A program made the position numbers and the translations under genes. The notes beneath the pieces were generated by a model, which saw only the letters and a program-made list of their open reading frames with translations, did no database searches and had not been told where the DNA came from. A stretch of 62,392 nucleotides of DNA from Myxococcota bacterium (GTDB lineage Bacteria > Myxococcota_A > Polyangia > Polyangiales > Houyiibacteriaceae), in assembly GCA_039030295.1 (NCBI GenBank), contig JBCCEK010000004.1, forward strand, positions 1 through 62,392. The letters are read 5' to 3'. Shown one piece after another: positions 29,104-37,190 of this stretch (its first letter is position 1; the number at the start of each line of letters is the position of its first letter).

Positions 29104-30003
29104 ATGAAGTGGCTTTGGTGCTTGGGAATCGTCGGGGCGTTCGCGATTGGCTGCGGAGACGCCGAGACCGGTGCCGGAGGACCAGACGGGTCCTTCTCGA
29201 TCAAGTGGGGCCCCACCGAGGTGCCCGCGCAGAGCGAGGCGACCGATTGCGTCGTGCGTAGACTTGGGAACCCAGAGGGAACCTTCATCCACGAGATCCA
29301 GAACGTCCTCGGAGCCACTTCTCACCACTTCATCGTGTACCGTGTGAACGACACGGTGGAGCAGCTTGAACCACAGCCCTGCCAGCCCTTCCTCGACGTC
29401 CTCGAGGACCCACCACTGATCATCACGCAACGCGCGGAGGACCGGCTGGTCTTGCCGGAAGGGGTTGCGTACCAGCTCGAGGCCGATCAGATGATCCGTC
29501 TCGAGCTCCACTACGTGAACCCGAGCGCGGCACCTCAGATGGCGGAGGCGACGTCGACGTTCGTGCCGATGCCGGCCGAAGAGGTCACCGATCTGGCAGA
29601 CGTCATGTTCTTGGGCGACGTGAACATCACTATCCCGCCCACGTCCCTTCACACGGTCGGACCAACCTACATTCGGATTCCGGAGCGCTTCAACGGCGTG
29701 AACTACTTCGCGATCACGGGGCACGAGCACCAGTGGGGCACGAACGTATTCGTCGAGGCAGTGCCGGATGCAGTGTCGCCGGGGACGCCCGTATACGACG
29801 TCGTTAACTTCAGGTGGGACGAGCCGGAAACCGTCACCCACGACCCCCCATTTCAGCTCCCGGACGGCGGTGGCTTCAACCTCACCTGCGACTGGAACAA
29901 CCAGAGCGGCAGCCGCGTGGAGTTCGGAACGGGCGTCGACGACGAGATGTGCTTCTTCTGGGCGTACTACTACCCAAGCCAGGGGCCGCTCGTTCTGTTC
30001 TGA
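29104..30003 (+). CDS. lipoprotein homologous to copper type II ascorbate-dependent monooxygenases (PHM/DBH fold)
   Basis: Lipobox MKWLWCLGIVGAFAIGC. SHHFIVY, LELHYVN, FAITGHEHQWG and DDEMCFFWAYYYP line up with PHM TVHHMLLF, LQVHYGD, YRVHTHHLG and SDEMCNLYIMYY (His/His/His plus His/His/Met copper ligands). Confidence 0.7.
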   Translation: MKWLWCLGIVGAFAIGCGDAETGAGGPDGSFSIKWGPTEVPAQSEATDCVVRRLGNPEGTFIHEIQNVLGATSHHFIVYRVNDTVEQLEPQPCQPFLDVLEDPPLIITQRAEDRLVLPEGVAYQLEADQMIRLELHYVNPSAAPQMAEATSTFVPMPAEEVTDLADVMFLGDVNITIPPTSLHTVGPTYIRIPERFNGVNYFAITGHEHQWGTNVFVEAVPDAVSPGTPVYDVVNFRWDEPETVTHDPPFQLPDGGGFNLTCDWNNQSGSRVEFGTGVDDEMCFFWAYYYPSQGPLVLF

Positions 30004-30011
30004 GCCTCTGC

Positions 30012-30086
30012 GTTTTGGGTTTTCGCGGTGCGGTGTGCAACGCGCTGGAACCAATGCGCTTTTCGGGGGGCGGAGTGACCCCGCTA
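30012..30086 (+). repeat. copy B of the ~74-nt conserved intergenic element
   Basis: Ungapped alignment to 4671..4745 matches 51 of 74 positions by my hand count, including the identical 20-mer at 30014-30033. It ends on the TAG stop (30084-30086) of the minus-strand Spt-like gene. Confidence 0.6.
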
Positions 30087-31313
30087 TTGGGCGGCGGCGG
30101 TGGGGGGGGTGTTTAGGAGGCCGAACTGGTGGCCGTACTGCTTGAGCAGGGTCAGAGCTCGGTCGATGTCTTCGTAGGAGTGGCCGCGTGTGACGTTGAG
30201 GCGGAGCCGTTCCTCACCCTGTTTGACCGCCGGGTACATGATCGGAACCATCAGGACGCCGTTCTCGAGCAGCGCGACGTGCATCATCATCGCTTTCATC
30301 TCGTCGCGGACCATGATGGGCATGATGTGCGTGTCACTGTCGCCGAGGTCAAAACCCATCTCGAGCAGGCCTTTGCGCATGTAGTCCGACTTGTCGTGGA
30401 GCTCCTTGACGAGAGCCTCGCCGTCGGCCTCGAGCATATCGAGGATGGTGCTCGCGACAGCCACGATGGGCACCGGCAGCGACGCGCTGAACAGGAACGA
30501 CCGCGCGTTGTGCTTGATGAAGTCGACGACGTCCTGGCTCCCAAGGAGAATCCCGCCGATCCCGCCGAAGGTCTTCGAGAAGGTGCTGATGACGATATCG
30601 ATCTTGCCCTCGAGGCCGTACTTCTCGATGATGCCCCGCCCCCCATTACCGAGGGTCCCGGTCCCATGTGCGTCGTCGCAGACGATGACGGTGTTCTCGT
30701 GCCTCGCGCAGACGTCGATGAACTCTTGAACCTTCCCTTCGTCTCCATCGAGCGAGTAAATCCCTTCGATGATCACGAGTGCGTTCTTGCGGTCCCGCTT
30801 GGTGAGCACCCGGTCGAGTGCCTTGGCGCTGTTGTGATTGAAGAACCGCACTTCGGGCGCCCTCATTGGAGTCCCCGCGGCGAGGAACGTGCCGTCGAGG
30901 ATGCAGGCGTGGCTGAGGTTGTCGAGGACGATCGTCGTGTCCTTGTCAGCCAGCGCCATGATCGTCCCGACCATCGCTTGGTAGCCGGTGGTGAAGGTCA
31001 GGCAGCTCTCGAAGCCGTACCAATTCGCCAAGCGCTCCTCGAGCTCGAGATGCGTCGTGGCTGTCGCCTGGACCCGCGAAGATCCGAGCCCACACGAGAA
31101 CTGCTCGACGGCCTTTTTGGCGGCCTCCTTGGCGTCCGGATGATTCGTGAGCCCCAAGTAATCGTTGGAACTGAAGTTGACGATCGCCTTGCCGTCGATG
31201 GTCGTGTGGAGACCACCCGACTCAAACGGACGGAAGTAGGGATAGACTTGCTGCCGTTGTGCGTCTCGGACGCGGCCTAGCTCGGCGACCGCCTTTTCGG
31301 TAATCCAACTCAT
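30084..31313 (-). CDS. PLP-dependent alpha-oxoamine synthase (serine palmitoyltransferase-like / AONS family)
   Basis: ORF 30084..31562 trimmed to ATG 31313 (MSWITEK..). NFSSNDYLGLTNHPD, TGYQAMVG, SHACILDG, and PLP-lysine context ISTFSKTFGG. Confidence 0.85.
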   Translation of the reverse strand: MSWITEKAVAELGRVRDAQRQQVYPYFRPFESGGLHTTIDGKAIVNFSSNDYLGLTNHPDAKEAAKKAVEQFSCGLGSSRVQATATTHLELEERLANWYGFESCLTFTTGYQAMVGTIMALADKDTTIVLDNLSHACILDGTFLAAGTPMRAPEVRFFNHNSAKALDRVLTKRDRKNALVIIEGIYSLDGDEGKVQEFIDVCARHENTVIVCDDAHGTGTLGNGGRGIIEKYGLEGKIDIVISTFSKTFGGIGGILLGSQDVVDFIKHNARSFLFSASLPVPIVAVASTILDMLEADGEALVKELHDKSDYMRKGLLEMGFDLGDSDTHIMPIMVRDEMKAMMMHVALLENGVLMVPIMYPAVKQGEERLRLNVTRGHSYEDIDRALTLLKQYGHQFGLLNTPPTAAAQ

Positions 31314-31382
31314 GAACTCTGCGGGCGGTTTATGGCGCGCGCGACGACTCGCGCAAGGTACCGTAGTTCCGACGAGAGACAA

Positions 31383-31417
31383 CATTTGAAACAGGTCGGC
31401 CGGCCAGTTTTCAAATG
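31383..31417. promoter_or_regulatory. AT-rich inverted repeat CATTTGAAA-N17-TTTCAAATG in the divergent Spt-like/ACP promoter region
   Basis: Perfect 9-nt arms at 31383-31391 and 31409-31417. The spacer contains the palindrome GGCCGGCC. It lies 39 nt upstream of the ACP ATG and 70 nt upstream of the Spt-like ATG. Confidence 0.45.
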
Positions 31418-31455
31418 CTTGACCGGATCCGGGAACCCAAGCATAAACGGGCGGC

Positions 31456-31689
31456 ATGTCGGAAACACTCAAAGAGGAGCTGCGGCAGATCATCGTCGAA
31501 GTCACCGAAGTGGAAGATATCCCGGAGGAAACCCCGTTCGCGGATCTGGGCATCGACAGCATGATGGCGATCGAGATCGTCGCCGATGTCGAGAAGAACT
31601 ACGACGTCACGATCGAGGAAGAAGAGCTCCCCGAGCTGATTCACCTCCAGGCCGTGTACGACAAGGTCAAAGAGAAACTCGGCTCCTAG
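31456..31689 (+). CDS. acyl carrier protein
   Basis: 77 aa, acidic, with phosphopantetheine attachment motif DLGIDSMMAIE. Confidence 0.88.
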   Translation: MSETLKEELRQIIVEVTEVEDIPEETPFADLGIDSMMAIEIVADVEKNYDVTIEEEELPELIHLQAVYDKVKEKLGS

Positions 31690-31715
31690 ACCGAGTTCAC
31701 GCTGACCTGGTCTAG
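31686..31715. terminator. hairpin between convergent ACP and acetyltransferase genes (possible bidirectional terminator)
   Basis: CTAGACC (31686-31692) pairs with GGTCTAG (31709-31715) across a 16-nt loop. No U tract, so this is weak. Confidence 0.3.
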
Positions 31716-31716
31716 C

Positions 31717-32610
31717 CTACTTGGCGCGGCCGAAGATCTTGGATCCTGGCGGCACCGATCGCGTCAGCCAGACGTTGCCGCCGATGACGCTGCCGCGCCC
31801 GATAACCGTGTCCCCGCCGTGGATCGAGGCGCCCGCGTAGATCGTGACGTCATCCTCGATCGTGGGGTGACGCTTCTGTCCCGGCCCGGATTCGATGTCG
31901 CCGCGCGAGACACTCAGCGCGCCCAGGGTGACACCCTGGTACAGCTTGACGTTGTTGCCGATGACGGCTGTCGCCCCGATGACCACCCCGGTGCCATGGT
32001 CAATGAAAAAGCTGTCTCCGATGCGAGCCCCGGGGTTGATGTCGATGCCGGTCTCGCTGTGTGCATGCTCCGTGATGATCCGAGGGATCATAGGCACGTT
32101 GGCGAGGTGCAACTCGTGGGCCACTCGGTACGCAGTGATCGCCTCGATGCTCGGGTAGCTGAACACGACTTCTTCGATGCCAGCGGCGGCCGGGTCGCCC
32201 TCGAAGGCTGCACGCACGTCTTTGTCGAGCGTCTTTCGGAGTTCTGGAATCTTCGCGAAGAGGCTCAGAACGACTTCCTCACTCCAACCCTCCGGACGCC
32301 GGCCTCCAAGTCGTCCGGTGCTCTCTTCGTATCGAACGGCGCGATCGATCTGCTCGACTAGGATGTCTTGCGCCGGGTAGACGTGCTCGCTGATCGCGTA
32401 GCGTAGGTTGGTTCGGTTGAGAGAGCGCGTGCTGTAGAAGCCCATGTAGAGAACGGGCTTGATGTGATGAAACGCAGTGATGACGGCCCGCTTGTTTGGC
32501 AAGGCAGCGCTGTCGAGATTGTTGATCTCGTCCTCGCCGTCATACGACTTCGCAATGAGATCGATGACGTTCTCGAGGTCCTGATGACGCTTCGGTTTCT
32601 CTGCCGTCAT
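31717..32610 (-). CDS. serine O-acetyltransferase (long, EpsC/CysE-like hexapeptide transferase)
   Basis: Hexapeptide-repeat C-terminus GIDINPGARIGDSFFIDHGTGVVIGATAVIGNNVKLYQGVTLG..HPTIEDDVTIYAGASI. Helical N-terminal domain. Confidence 0.85.
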   Translation of the reverse strand: MTAEKPKRHQDLENVIDLIAKSYDGEDEINNLDSAALPNKRAVITAFHHIKPVLYMGFYSTRSLNRTNLRYAISEHVYPAQDILVEQIDRAVRYEESTGRLGGRRPEGWSEEVVLSLFAKIPELRKTLDKDVRAAFEGDPAAAGIEEVVFSYPSIEAITAYRVAHELHLANVPMIPRIITEHAHSETGIDINPGARIGDSFFIDHGTGVVIGATAVIGNNVKLYQGVTLGALSVSRGDIESGPGQKRHPTIEDDVTIYAGASIHGGDTVIGRGSVIGGNVWLTRSVPPGSKIFGRAK

Positions 32611-32659
32611 GGCTCGTCTATGTGTAGCATGGGCGCCCCGTCAACGGCGAAATCGCCGG

Positions 32660-33643
32660 CTACTCGATCAACCAGCCCTCCGCCTCGTAAAACTCAACCG
32701 ACGCCGCAAGGGACTCGCGCAACGGACGAATCGTGTAGCCAAGCTCGCGCTCAGCCTTGTCCCTGTGGACCACGGCATTGGAGACGCTGGCACGCAGGAT
32801 GTCCGGCGTAATCATGGGTTCGGTGCGGGTCACCAAGCTCCCTGCGAGCACGAACGGAAGGACCGCCCAACCAACCCAGAGCGGCAGCACCCTAGTCGGC
32901 ATCGGTTTCCCGGTGAGCTCTCCGAAGAGCGATACCATCTCGAGGATCGGGATCACCTCACCCGTCAGGAAATAGCGCTCACCAACCCGGCCGTGCTCGG
33001 CTGCAAGGATTGCACCCTTGGCAACGTCGCGGGCATCGACGTAGTCGCTCAGAAGGTGCAGGAGAACCGGTACACGACCGAAGTACATGTCGAGCAACGC
33101 GGCGCCGATCATCGATGGCTCGTAGTCGTGAGGTCCGATCATCGAACCCGGGCTGATGATGCACGCGTCGAGTCCCCGCTCGCACGCCTCGAGTACGACG
33201 GTTTCGCCGATGGCTTTGGACCGGTGGTAGTCACACTTCTCATCGAGTGCGAGAGGGCGTTCCTCGGTCAGAGGCTGCGAAAGAGGCCTCCGCTCTACCG
33301 CGTGGTGCGAGCTCGTGTGGACCAGGCGCAGCCCTCGCAAGAGGCAAGCCTCCACCACGTTGCGAGTTCCGTCGACGTTGATCGCCGCCATCGACGGGTC
33401 TTTCTTGATGCGGAGATCGATCTTGGCGGCAAGGTGGTAGACCTGGTCGACCTCCCCCTCGAGCGCTCGCGCTACATCGCGCATCTCGAGGACCGACCCT
33501 TGAACGAACTCGATGTCCAGGCCCTCGAGCGAACGCGGTCGCTCTCCCGGTTCGAGGACCCGCACACGATCGCCCCTGTCGAGCAACTGCCGGACCAACA
33601 CGTTGCCTAGGCGGCCGCCGCCACCCGTCACCACGGTAAGCAC
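32660..33643 (-). CDS. NAD-dependent epimerase/dehydratase-family SDR
   Basis: ORF 32660..33820. Start set to GTG 33643, just before the Rossmann motif VVTGGGGRLGNVLV, because the upstream part would overlap the pgm 3' end. Catalytic YHRSK. Confidence 0.8.
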   Translation of the reverse strand: MLTVVTGGGGRLGNVLVRQLLDRGDRVRVLEPGERPRSLEGLDIEFVQGSVLEMRDVARALEGEVDQVYHLAAKIDLRIKKDPSMAAINVDGTRNVVEACLLRGLRLVHTSSHHAVERRPLSQPLTEERPLALDEKCDYHRSKAIGETVVLEACERGLDACIISPGSMIGPHDYEPSMIGAALLDMYFGRVPVLLHLLSDYVDARDVAKGAILAAEHGRVGERYFLTGEVIPILEMVSLFGELTGKPMPTRVLPLWVGWAVLPFVLAGSLVTRTEPMITPDILRASVSNAVVHRDKAERELGYTIRPLRESLAASVEFYEAEGWLIE

Positions 33644-33675: not shown

Positions 33676-35325
33676 TCAACCAGACTCGGAGAGCTCGAAG
33701 ACTCGACCCACGAGGCGCTTGGCTTCGCTTTGGATCATCGCGAGATGCTCGCGTCCAGAGAAGCTCTCGGCGTAGATTTTGTAGACGTCCTCGGTGCCCG
33801 AAGGCCGCGCGGCAAACCACCCGCTTTCGGTTGTGACCTTCAACCCCCCCAGGGGCGCGTCGTTGTGGGGTGCGCGTGTCAGCACTTCGCGGATGGGCTC
33901 GCCTGCCAACTCATCGGCGTCGAGGCTCGAAGCGTCCATCGATTTCAGTGCGCGTTTTTGCTGTGCCGTCGCGGGCGCGTCGATGCGTTCGTAGACCGGA
34001 CTTCCGAACTCTTGCGCGAGTGCCTGGTAGCGCTCGCCCGGGTCTTGCCCGGTCGTCGCCGTGATCTCCGCCGCGAGCAGGTTCAAAAGAATGCCGTCTT
34101 TGTCAGTCGTCCACGCCCCGCCGTCTTTGCGCAGGAAGGAGGCACCCGCACTCTCTTCACCGCCGAAACCGAGGGACCCGTCGTTGAGGCCTTCGACGAA
34201 CCACTTGAACCCCACGGGAACCTCAGCGAGCTTCCGGCCGAGGCTGGCGGCGACACGATCGATCATCGCGCTGCTGACGAGGGTCTTGCCGACGGCCGCA
34301 CCTCCCGACCACTGTCGGTGCGTGAACAAGTAGTGCACCGCAACGGCCAAATAGTGGTTCGGATTGAGGAGCCCCCAACTCTGGGTGACGATCCCGTGCC
34401 GATCAAAGTCTGTGTCGTTCGCGAAGGCAATGTCGTATTGGTCGCGGTGATCGACCAAGCGCGCCATCGCGTACGGCGATGAACAGTCCATCCGGACCTT
34501 GCCGTCATGGTCGAGGGGCATGAACGAGAAAGTCGGGTCGATCTTGTCATTGACGACTTCCAGTCGGAGCCGATAGCGCTCAGCAATCCGTGGCCAGTAG
34601 GCGACGCCCGCCCCTCCCATCGGGTCCGCACCAATTCGGAGGCCGGACTCCGACACCGCCTCGAGGTCGATCGCCGCGCCAAGGGCCTCGACGTACGGCG
34701 ATAGGAAGTCGTGAAAGTGTGTGGTGTCGGCCGCCAACGCCGCTTCGAGTCCAACCCGTCGAACGTCTCGAAGGCCGTCGGCAAGCAACTGATTGGCTCG
34801 GCGCTCGATCCAGCCGGTCACCTCGGTATCGGCGGGGCCGCCGTGCGGCGGATTGTATTTGAAGCCCCCGTCTTCGGGTGGGTTGTGTGACGGAGTGACG
34901 ACGATTCCGTCTGCCTCCCTTGCGTGATTCCGGTTGTACTCGAGAATCGCGAAGGACACTGCAGGCGTTGGGGTGAAGTGCCCCTCTCTGGCGCAACACA
35001 CCTCCACCGAGTTGGCCGCAAGGACCTCGAGGGCTGTCCGACTCGCCGGCGCCGACAGAGCATGCGTGTCGATCCCGATGAAGAGAGGACCGTCGATGCC
35101 CTCGGCCACGCGGTAGTCGCAGATCGCCTGAGTGGTGGCGAGGATGTGCGCCTCGTTGAAGCTCAGTCGTAATGATGAGCCACGGTGCCCAGACGTTCCG
35201 AAACTGACGCGCTGGGCAGGCTCATTGGGATCGGGAGCTTCGTCGAAGTACGCCCGAAGGAGCGCGTCGACATCGACGAGCATCTCTTTGGGCACGACGC
35301 TTCCGGCAAGCGGGTGCACGGGCAT
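33676..35325 (-). CDS. pgm: phosphoglucomutase (alpha-D-glucose phosphate-specific)
   Basis: ORF trimmed to ATG 35325 (MPVHPLAG..). Active-site loop [15 protein letters not shown] and metal loop [11 protein letters not shown]. Confidence 0.93.
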
Positions 35326-36176: not shown

Positions 36177-37190
36177 CTATTCGGCTGCGTTTTCAGGTAG
36201 TTCCGCAGCCCGAGCCACCGTCCCCTGAGCGACGTCTCCGGGATCCAGCGCGGAAAGCCCGGCGTCCCGCAAGAGCGCGAGGTCGGCTTCGTGATCGGGA
36301 TTGCCCGTAGTCAGGAGCTTGTCGCCGAAGAAGATACTGTTGGCACCCGCCATGAAACACAGAAGCTGGGCCTCTCGGTTGAGTTCGCTGCGGCCCGCGG
36401 AGAGGCGAACGCGTGCGGCGGGGATCATGATGCGCGCGACCGCGCACAGCCGTACGAGCTCGAGCGACTCGACTGGATCCTGATCGGCGAGGGGTGTCCC
36501 TTCGACACGGACCAACGCATTGATCGGTACGCTCTCTGGCTGAGGCGAGAGATTGGCCAGGGTGACGAGCATGCCGATGCGATCGACGATGCCCTCCCCC
36601 ATCCCGATGATACCCCCCGCGCACACGGAAATCCCGGCGTCGGCAACGCGCTGGATCGTTTGCAGCCGGTCGGCGTAGGTCCGCGTCGTGATGATCTCGC
36701 CGTAGTAGTCTTCGGAAGTGTCCAGATTGTGGTTGTAGGCCGTGAGACCAGCGTCTTTGAGTTGTTGGGTTTGCTCATCGTCGAGCATCCCGAGGGTGGC
36801 GCAGGCCTCGAGGCCGAGCGCACGAACACCGCGTACCATCTCGAGCACGCGATTGAACTGCTCGCTTCCCTTCTTGGGGCTGCGCCACGCGGCGCCCATG
36901 CAAAAACGACTGGCGCCGGCATCCTTGGCCTGTCGTGCTTTGCTCAGGACCTCGGAGACATCCATGAGTCGCTCCGCCTCGACGCCCGTGTCGTAGCGAG
37001 CGCTCTGAGGACAATACGCGCAGTCTTCAGGGCAGGCGCCGGTCTTGATGGAGAGCAGCGTACACAGCTGCACCGAATCGGGCGGTTGATGGGCGCGATG
37101 GACCTCCTGAGCACGAAAGAGGAGATCGGTCAGCGGGAGGTCGTACAGTTCCCGCGCCTGTTCGCGCGTCCAATACTGGGCTTCGGTCAT
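36177..37190 (-). CDS. bioB: biotin synthase
   Basis: Radical-SAM motif [11 protein letters not shown]; family similarity across 337 aa. Confidence 0.95.

Follow-up and report, generated by a model that had tools for sequence, protein, structure and literature searches.

Serine palmitoyltransferase (Spt) systems that employ a dedicated acyl carrier protein (ACP), and the ceramide pathway that runs through bCerS and CerR, are known in Proteobacteria (PMC9386255, PMC11324152). In the cluster of Escherichia coli BL21(DE3) (locus L061), which serves as the reference here, YghO, a fatty acyl-AMP ligase (FAAL), an epimerase-family short-chain dehydrogenase/reductase (SDR), an ACP and spt are encoded together, and YghO (ECD_02850) has been listed as a homolog of Caulobacter CC_1154, the N-acyltransferase referred to as bCerS (PMC9386255). 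Sphingolipids fed by a polyketide synthase (PKS) are known from Pseudomonas, wherein SgaAB of Pseudomonas fluorescens MYb115 forms them via an iterative type I PKS and an alpha-oxoamine synthase (AONS) with Spt activity (PMC12134224), and broad "Spt-like" clades have been reported from metagenomes (PMC11334938). This work concerns an AONS-family pyridoxal phosphate (PLP) enzyme and a divergently encoded stand-alone ACP in a stretch of 62,392 nucleotides, hereafter the window, from contig C4 (JBCCEK010000004.1) of the assembly GCA_039030295.1 (G000), a 4.8 Mb, 96% complete genome of an uncultured marine myxobacterium (Myxococcota, Polyangia). A sequence-only reading of the window had proposed that the synthase and ACP, with a nearby SDR and an acetyltransferase, constitute a sphingoid-lipid module, and all the genes and motifs that it described were found at their positions. 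Based on the analysis reported here, we propose that the AONS and its ACP probably perform the first step of ceramide synthesis, with the AONS acting as the long-chain-base synthase, and that the neighboring SDR, acetyltransferase and phosphoglucomutase genes stand outside the pathway.

Like the AasR-AcpR-Spt, CerR and bCerS system of Caulobacter crescentus and E. coli BL21(DE3), the window locus encodes a PLP-dependent AONS alongside a private stand-alone ACP, most of its relatives carry an acyl-AMP ligase beside the ACP, and the window's genome possesses a YghO/bCerS homolog (40% identity) as well as an epimerase-family SDR that resembles CerR. The window locus differs, however, in that its AONS is only 33% identical to E. 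coli Spt and appears to fall outside the validated Spt clade. The ACP does not resemble AcpR specifically, neither bCerS nor CerR is linked to the AONS, and the ligase is absent from the locus in the window's genus. The relatives of the locus additionally carry a pair of ketosynthase (KS) and chain-length-factor (CLF)-like genes, which occurs in no described bacterial sphingolipid cluster, and our literature search found no paper on a KS/CLF/FAAL/ACP/AONS sphingolipid cassette or on its reduced form. SgaAB provides a precedent for ketosynthase chemistry that assembles the acyl chain of a sphingoid base on a carrier, from which an AONS releases it; but SgaA is one multidomain type I PKS, whereas the relatives of the window locus encode the KS, CLF-like protein, FAAL and ACP separately and the window only the ACP, and SgaAB has been described as secondary metabolism, whereas the window-type AONS is near-universal in its order. 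The same order also contains the canonical myxobacterial Spt-bCerS-CerR cluster (L056, L057, L051 and L041), with an orthologous bCerS (~50% identity). The Spt of this cluster is 35-41% identical to the window AONS and lacks an adjacent ACP, KS and FAAL. In most cases it is linked directly to bCerS and CerR, a linkage that the window type usually lacks.

Results

The synthase is paired with a dedicated ACP

The AONS gene (30084-31313, minus strand) encodes a protein of 409 residues beginning with MSWITEK, which scores 160 bits on the Pfam model Aminotran_1_2; a longer open reading frame of 492 residues, extending to 31562, runs into the ACP gene, and MSWITEK is most likely the true start. On the other side of a 142 bp divergent region lies the ACP gene (31456-31689, plus strand), encoding 77 residues with a PP-binding score of 49.5 bits and the phosphopantetheine serine in the motif GIDSM. 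This ACP scores only 28-29 bits on the AcpP model TIGR00517 (cut-off 70), and the true AcpP of the genome is encoded at C44:2544-2771, adjoining FabF. An ACP ortholog was located near the AONS in all 20 of the whole-genome orthologous loci examined, which bears out the pairing of the synthase with a dedicated ACP. When compared with E. coli AcpR, the window ACP showed 23-26% identity over about 30 residues (E 0.001-0.004), no better than against the AcpP of its own genome. It is a stand-alone non-AcpP carrier encoded beside the synthase, with no detectable relatedness to AcpR beyond general ACP likeness. The parallel once drawn with the AcpR-Spt pairs of Sphingomonas and Caulobacter holds by analogy, but not in kinship, as the AONS appears to lie outside the validated Spt clade and the ACP is not detectably nearer to AcpR than to AcpP. 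A gene for an Sfp-type phosphopantetheinyl transferase (PPTase), cut by the contig end, resides on C105, and its product may activate the window ACP.

The synthase is distinct from the BioF of the same genome

The AONS carries the motif STFSKTFGG, and an alignment indicates that it keeps the equivalents of E. coli BioF residues H133, S179, E175, D204, H207, T233 and K236. Its lysine motif TFSK is common to E. coli Spt, a CFB-like Spt and the bCerS-linked myxobacterial Spts, unlike the T[FL]GK of BioF and Kbl. Among protein structures, its closest match in the PDB is the Sphingobacterium Spt (241 bits), followed by a thermostable alpha-oxoamine synthase (220), a cysteate acyltransferase (219), BioF (206) and the Sphingomonas Spt (206). 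The curated NCBIfam models gave 317 bits for SerpalmtaseCFB (NF047600, cut-off 640), 285 for NF047599 (cut-off 500), 233 for NF047603 (cut-off 670) and 314.6 for bioF (TIGR00858, cut-off 426.45), the last being nearly equal to the best Spt model.

By tblastn and family searches, the window's genome, within the completeness of its assembly, contains only two AONS genes. The second lies on C29 and reaches 426.4 bits on TIGR00858, right at the cut-off; bioD follows it directly. No bioA or bioD occurs within the window; bioA is found on C361. With bioF-bioD on C29, bioA on C361 and bioB in the window, the genome possesses a full set of biotin genes that does not include the window AONS. Moreover, two arginines common to E. 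coli BioF and the C29 BioF, which we take to be those that bind the pimeloyl carboxylate, are replaced in the window AONS by Tyr and by Met or Thr. The window AONS is thus not BioF, and on this point the sequence-only reading is upheld.

Candidates for the remaining ceramide genes are encoded elsewhere in the genome

As had been noticed from the sequence, the window contains no bCerS-like gene. A genome-wide search located a full-length homolog of E. coli BL21 YghO (40% identity, E 8e-80) at C30:2531-3667, between comEC and fumC. The best CerR candidate of the genome is an SDR encoded at C180:7521-8507, which scores 124-160 bits against the bCerS-linked CerRs of sister genomes and is kept within the genus (61% identity in G017). 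The genome thus supplies candidates for the rest of the ceramide pathway, bCerS/YghO on C30 and a CerR-like SDR on C180, in line with the proposed lipid function of the synthase.

A strong FemAB_like (PF04339) protein (463 bits) is encoded at C105:13084-15144 (L037), two genes from the Sfp-type PPTase. The FemAB_like family was considered as a source of bCerS because one AONS representative is a PilZ-AONS-FemAB_like fusion, and the candidate was rejected, as YghO has no Pfam match and the true YghO homolog is the one on C30.

Window-type and canonical synthases rarely occur together

The distribution of AONS genes was surveyed in a phylum sample of 300 Myxococcota genomes, 49 of which, the window's genome included, belong to the window's order, and in an order sample of 61 genomes from 24 families. 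In the phylum sample, window-type orthologs, at 64% identity or higher, were confined to the window's order, and all other AONS were at most 41% identical. Within the order, they are 62-98% identical and occur in most genomes, across some 22 families. The 49 genomes of the order in the phylum sample divided into 38 with the window type and 11 with a type of about 38% identity, none having both, and bCerS was present in 47 of them. Similarly, the order sample contained the window type in about 52 of 61 genomes (two partial matches counted), the canonical type alone in five, all of one family, and both types in one (G340), with bCerS in 58.

The type of about 38% identity is the canonical Spt of the order: bCerS lies within 7.2 kb of it in nine of the 11 genomes, at less than 150 bp in five, and CerR is also present in the Spt/bCerS cluster in the loci examined. 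Because genomes carry either one AONS type or the other, the canonical Spt and the window type apparently fill the same place in the pathway. Two genomes connect the window type with the ceramide genes directly. G302 carries a 70% identical AONS of the window type and bCerS in divergent orientation, with 252 bp between them; in G095, an adjacent bCerS-CerR pair has no AONS within about 8 kb, and the one Spt-like gene of the genome, which lies at a distance of about 1 Mb, belongs to the window type.

In G340, the two copies are located at C321:1139-2350 and C477:5057-6208; an in-frame TGA interrupts the window-type copy, and contamination amounts to 6% of the assembly. This copy may be decaying, or two organisms may have been binned together.

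Relatives outside the genus carry a KS/CLF/FAAL cassette

In nearly all the other genera of the order, the AONS is the last gene of an operon of KS (~436 residues), CLF-like protein (~384 residues) and AONS that faces the ACP gene, and 12 of the 18 loci from other genera also contain a FAAL-type ligase. The CLF-like gene was present in 49 of the 61 genomes of the order sample, which are nearly all the window-type carriers outside the window's genus, and was found in that sample neither in the window's genus nor in the canonical-Spt family. No KS, CLF or FAAL orthologs occur in the window's genome; the genus has lost all three and kept the ACP-AONS core alone.

More distant relatives also associate with reductive or carrier-based genes. 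In P0123, a 52% identical AONS is fused to a classical short-chain reductase domain, which would fit with a ketone product that is then reduced. In P0124, a sister-lineage AONS (48% identity; locus L067:5379-10874; GCA_030590865.1, JAUVCD010000029.1) is surrounded by a KS, three ketoreductase (KR)-type SDRs, an ACP, a PPTase, a malonyl transferase-like protein and a FabA/ApeI-like dehydratase, a set that has the appearance of a carrier-based amino-lipid cluster.

The best trees separate the window type from BioF and Kbl

For the trees, 150 representatives at 50% identity were combined with sequences from the myxobacterial loci and with the BioF, Kbl and Spt of E. coli; the trees were anchored by E. 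coli BioF, Kbl and BL21 Spt, the NCBIfam scores of the representatives and bCerS linkage, with no named CFB Spt, CapB, ALAS, CqsA or SgaB references. With FastTree, the window clade, which includes four metagenomic representatives at 42-55% identity, fell inside a 160-row clade (support 100) without the BioF and Kbl groups. Within it, the window clade was sister (support 85) to a 64-row clade that holds E. coli Spt, the CFB-like P0154 (625 bits on NF047600) and the bCerS-linked myxobacterial Spts. A mixture model in IQ-TREE likewise set the window clade apart from the BioF group (SH-aLRT 95) and Kbl (85), and gave no supported placement of it relative to the validated Spts. In an approximately unbiased (AU) test, grouping the window clade with BioF cost 37.4 log-likelihood units and was not rejected (p 0.07). 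Judged by phylogeny alone, the trees and the AU test suggest that the AONS is Spt-like but of a separate lineage, and the functional call rests on genome logic. In the phylogenetic check on the sequence-only reading, the synthase stands apart from the BioF and Kbl groups and appears to lie outside the validated Spt clade.

Discussion

The AONS and its divergent ACP may initiate ceramide synthesis in the following manner. The ACP would be converted to its holo form, for which the Sfp-type PPTase gene on C105 is available, and holo-ACP would then bear a long acyl chain; upon this, the PLP enzyme would catalyze a decarboxylative condensation of the acyl-ACP with an amino acid, of which L-serine is the likeliest, to produce a 3-keto long-chain base. 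The unlinked bCerS/YghO-type N-acyltransferase on C30 would acylate the base, and a CerR-like extended SDR, best represented by that on C180, would reduce the product to dihydroceramide. In the relatives outside the genus, FAAL could load a fatty acid onto the private ACP and the KS/CLF pair could extend the chain. Behind this scheme stand the gene identities, the catalytic residues, the AONS-ACP pairing, the separate biotin set, the presence of bCerS and the near-exclusive distribution of the two AONS types, all established in the analysis, and we infer the amino-acid substrate, the acyl chain, the loading of the ACP in the window's genus and the order of acylation and reduction.

Several observations weigh against assigning the AONS to ceramide synthesis. 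The AONS is under every curated NCBIfam equivalog cut-off, falling far short of all three Spt equivalogs; its clade is sister to the validated Spts in FastTree rather than nested among them, without a supported position relative to them in IQ-TREE, and the AU test tolerates its grouping with BioF. No acyl-ACP synthetase for the ACP is identifiable in the window's genus, where the best AMP-binding matches are 25-29% identical, and the C180 SDR is only 33% identical to the bCerS-linked CerRs. Additionally, the pattern of one AONS type or the other may reflect only one or a few replacement events, because related genomes are not independent, and G340 carries both types. Finally, the KS/CLF partnership of the relatives resembles the amino-ketone logic of natural products such as those of RedL and PigJ/PigH as much as lipid synthesis. 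RedL (A-ACP-KS-AT-ACP-OAS) and PigJ/PigH are fused pigment-pathway enzymes of prodiginine biosynthesis, and we presume the likeness to the relatives' cassette to lie in the activation of an acid, its loading onto a carrier, one extension by a KS and the condensation with an amino acid by an AONS. To our knowledge, the loci studied here differ from these in having no pyrrole-pathway genes, and the window's genus in having no KS step.

The same observations nourish the view that the ACP-AONS pair makes another amino-ketone or amino-alcohol, for instance a CqsA-like signal, a RedL-like pyrroline precursor, or a lipid derived from glycine, alanine or cysteate, while bCerS takes another substrate, or takes that product in place of a classical sphingoid base. 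A clade that appears to lie outside the validated Spts, Spt equivalog scores all below their cut-offs, and a cysteate acyltransferase structure that scores close behind the Spt speak for such an enzyme, as do an AONS that in the relatives follows a KS/CLF-like pair and faces FAAL and ACP like a dissociated RedL, and a sister lineage that is embedded in a full dissociated set of KS, KR, dehydratase, malonyl transferase, ACP and PPTase. However, the gene is single-copy, 62-98% identical over some 22 families and located among housekeeping genes, which sets it apart from variable secondary-metabolite clusters. It and the canonical Spt stand in for each other in genomes that retain bCerS and CerR; it adjoins bCerS in G302, and in the window's genus does without KS, CLF and FAAL. 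We therefore regard a different product as unlikely. That the AONS might be a second BioF-type enzyme for biotin synthesis is hardly credible: the bioF score close to the best Spt score, the AU test and the bioB gene 5 kb away (36255-37175), which is also near the cassette in one other family (L025), are outweighed by a biotin pathway already completed by bioF-bioD and bioA on other contigs, by a score under the bioF cut-off, by the substituted arginines and the TFSK lysine motif, and by the best trees, which set the AONS apart from the BioF group.

Highly improbable, too, is the full module of the sequence-only reading, in which the window SDR would be the 3-keto-base reductase and the serine acetyltransferase (SAT)-like protein would modify the substrate or the product. 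The SDR (32660-33643, minus strand) is an extended SDR of the HpnA or 3-beta-hydroxysteroid dehydrogenase type, with 99.6 bits on the Pfam Epimerase model and the motifs GGGGRLG and YHRSK, and belongs to the same broad superfamily as CerR; the gene order pgm-SDR-SAT-ACP-AONS is kept in all seven complete same-genus loci examined, and the linkage arises in the very genus that lost KS, CLF and FAAL. However, of the 18 orthologous loci examined outside the genus, none has pgm-SDR-SAT next to the ACP. Orthologs of the SDR, whose best NCBIfam match is HpnA at 217 bits (cut-off 368), reach 72% identity or more only within the genus, are at most 47% identical or absent elsewhere, and were not found at E 1e-30 or better in many AONS carriers. 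Against four bCerS-linked CerRs the window SDR scores 49-84 bits, well below the C180 SDR, which is itself conserved in the genus, and against E. coli CerR the two score 32 and 75 bits, respectively; the keto-reductase role suggested for the window SDR is accordingly judged improbable. The SAT gene is the only cysE-like gene that tblastn located in the genome, and in the sister-genus genome G240 its 65% identical ortholog lies at 0.27 Mb and the AONS at 4.7 Mb, about 4.4 Mb apart. Given this genus-limited linkage and the better CerR match on C180, we judge SDR, SAT and pgm to be genus-specific neighbors outside the ceramide pathway, and they should not be labeled as sphingolipid genes in annotation.

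Returning to the ceramide reading, the distribution of the two AONS types raises a wider, tentative proposal, in which we place somewhat less than even confidence. Most of the order may have swapped the canonical Spt for an independently recruited AONS lineage fed by a private ACP, ancestrally FAAL-activated and extended by a KS/CLF-like pair, such that sphingoid bases would be produced by a small dissociated polyketide- or fatty-acid-like machine, and the window's genus, with ACP and AONS, would be a natural minimal version showing the essential parts. The base made by such a machine could be an unusual one, whether longer, keto-bearing or modified in some other way, and the machine would be the second case, after the type I PKS of SgaAB, in which carrier-bound chain building feeds sphingoid-base synthesis. 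The usual way to predict bacterial sphingolipid producers is to search for homologs of Spt, bCerS and CerR. If the proposal is true, screens of this kind would under-call an order-wide Spt replacement that has about 38% identity and different partners, or would label it "BioF/Kbl-like". The window's genus, lacking KS, CLF and FAAL, also offers a natural experiment on what the extra genes add to the lipid.

Neighboring genes and additional observations

The divergent region between AONS and ACP (31314-31455), as read from the sequence, presumably holds both promoters. No sigma-70-like site was found in it, and simple promoter and terminator scans of the locus gave nothing over shuffled expectation. 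It contains a perfect 9-17-9 palindrome, CATTTGAAA ... TTTCAAATG, at 31383-31417, which had been put forward as a possible operator; the palindrome was not found in any of the 28 related loci searched, nine of them of the same genus, and is therefore not a conserved regulatory site.

The genes pgm, SDR and SAT all lie on the minus strand, convergent with the ACP. The gene pgm (33676-35325), which encodes phosphoglucomutase (TIGR01132, 862 bits, cut-off 778), is a housekeeping neighbor. The SAT-like hexapeptide protein (31717-32610) has 297 residues and scores 150 bits on cysE TIGR01172 and 142 bits on EpsC, both under the cut-offs; it has an N-terminal extension of about 110 residues and probably serves the organism as a long-form serine acetyltransferase.

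The bioB gene, on the minus strand, scores 401 bits, which exceeds its cut-off. A bioB gene occurs close to the ACP side of the cassette in one other family as well, at L025:858-1778 (G185), and it was not seen near the cassette in the other 17 loci from outside the genus. The two occurrences may explain why a role in biotin synthesis comes to be suspected. On the far side of the AONS, a lipoprotein gene for a copper monooxygenase of the PHM/DBH type (29104-30003) converges on the AONS gene; homologs lie about 0.1-3 kb from the AONS in the same-genus loci L003, L004, L005, L008 and L012, and are absent from the loci of other genera.

Among the more distant Spt-like AONS, P0137, P0139 and P0153 (35-40% identity) possess an N-terminal PilZ (c-di-GMP-binding) domain, and one PilZ-bearing representative is a PilZ-AONS-FemAB_like/GNAT fusion of 933 residues. 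The PilZ domain was looked for and not found on the canonical Spts of the window's order, the PilZ-AONS fusions belonging to other clades. The domain architecture of these proteins suggests that amino-lipid synthases may be under second-messenger control.

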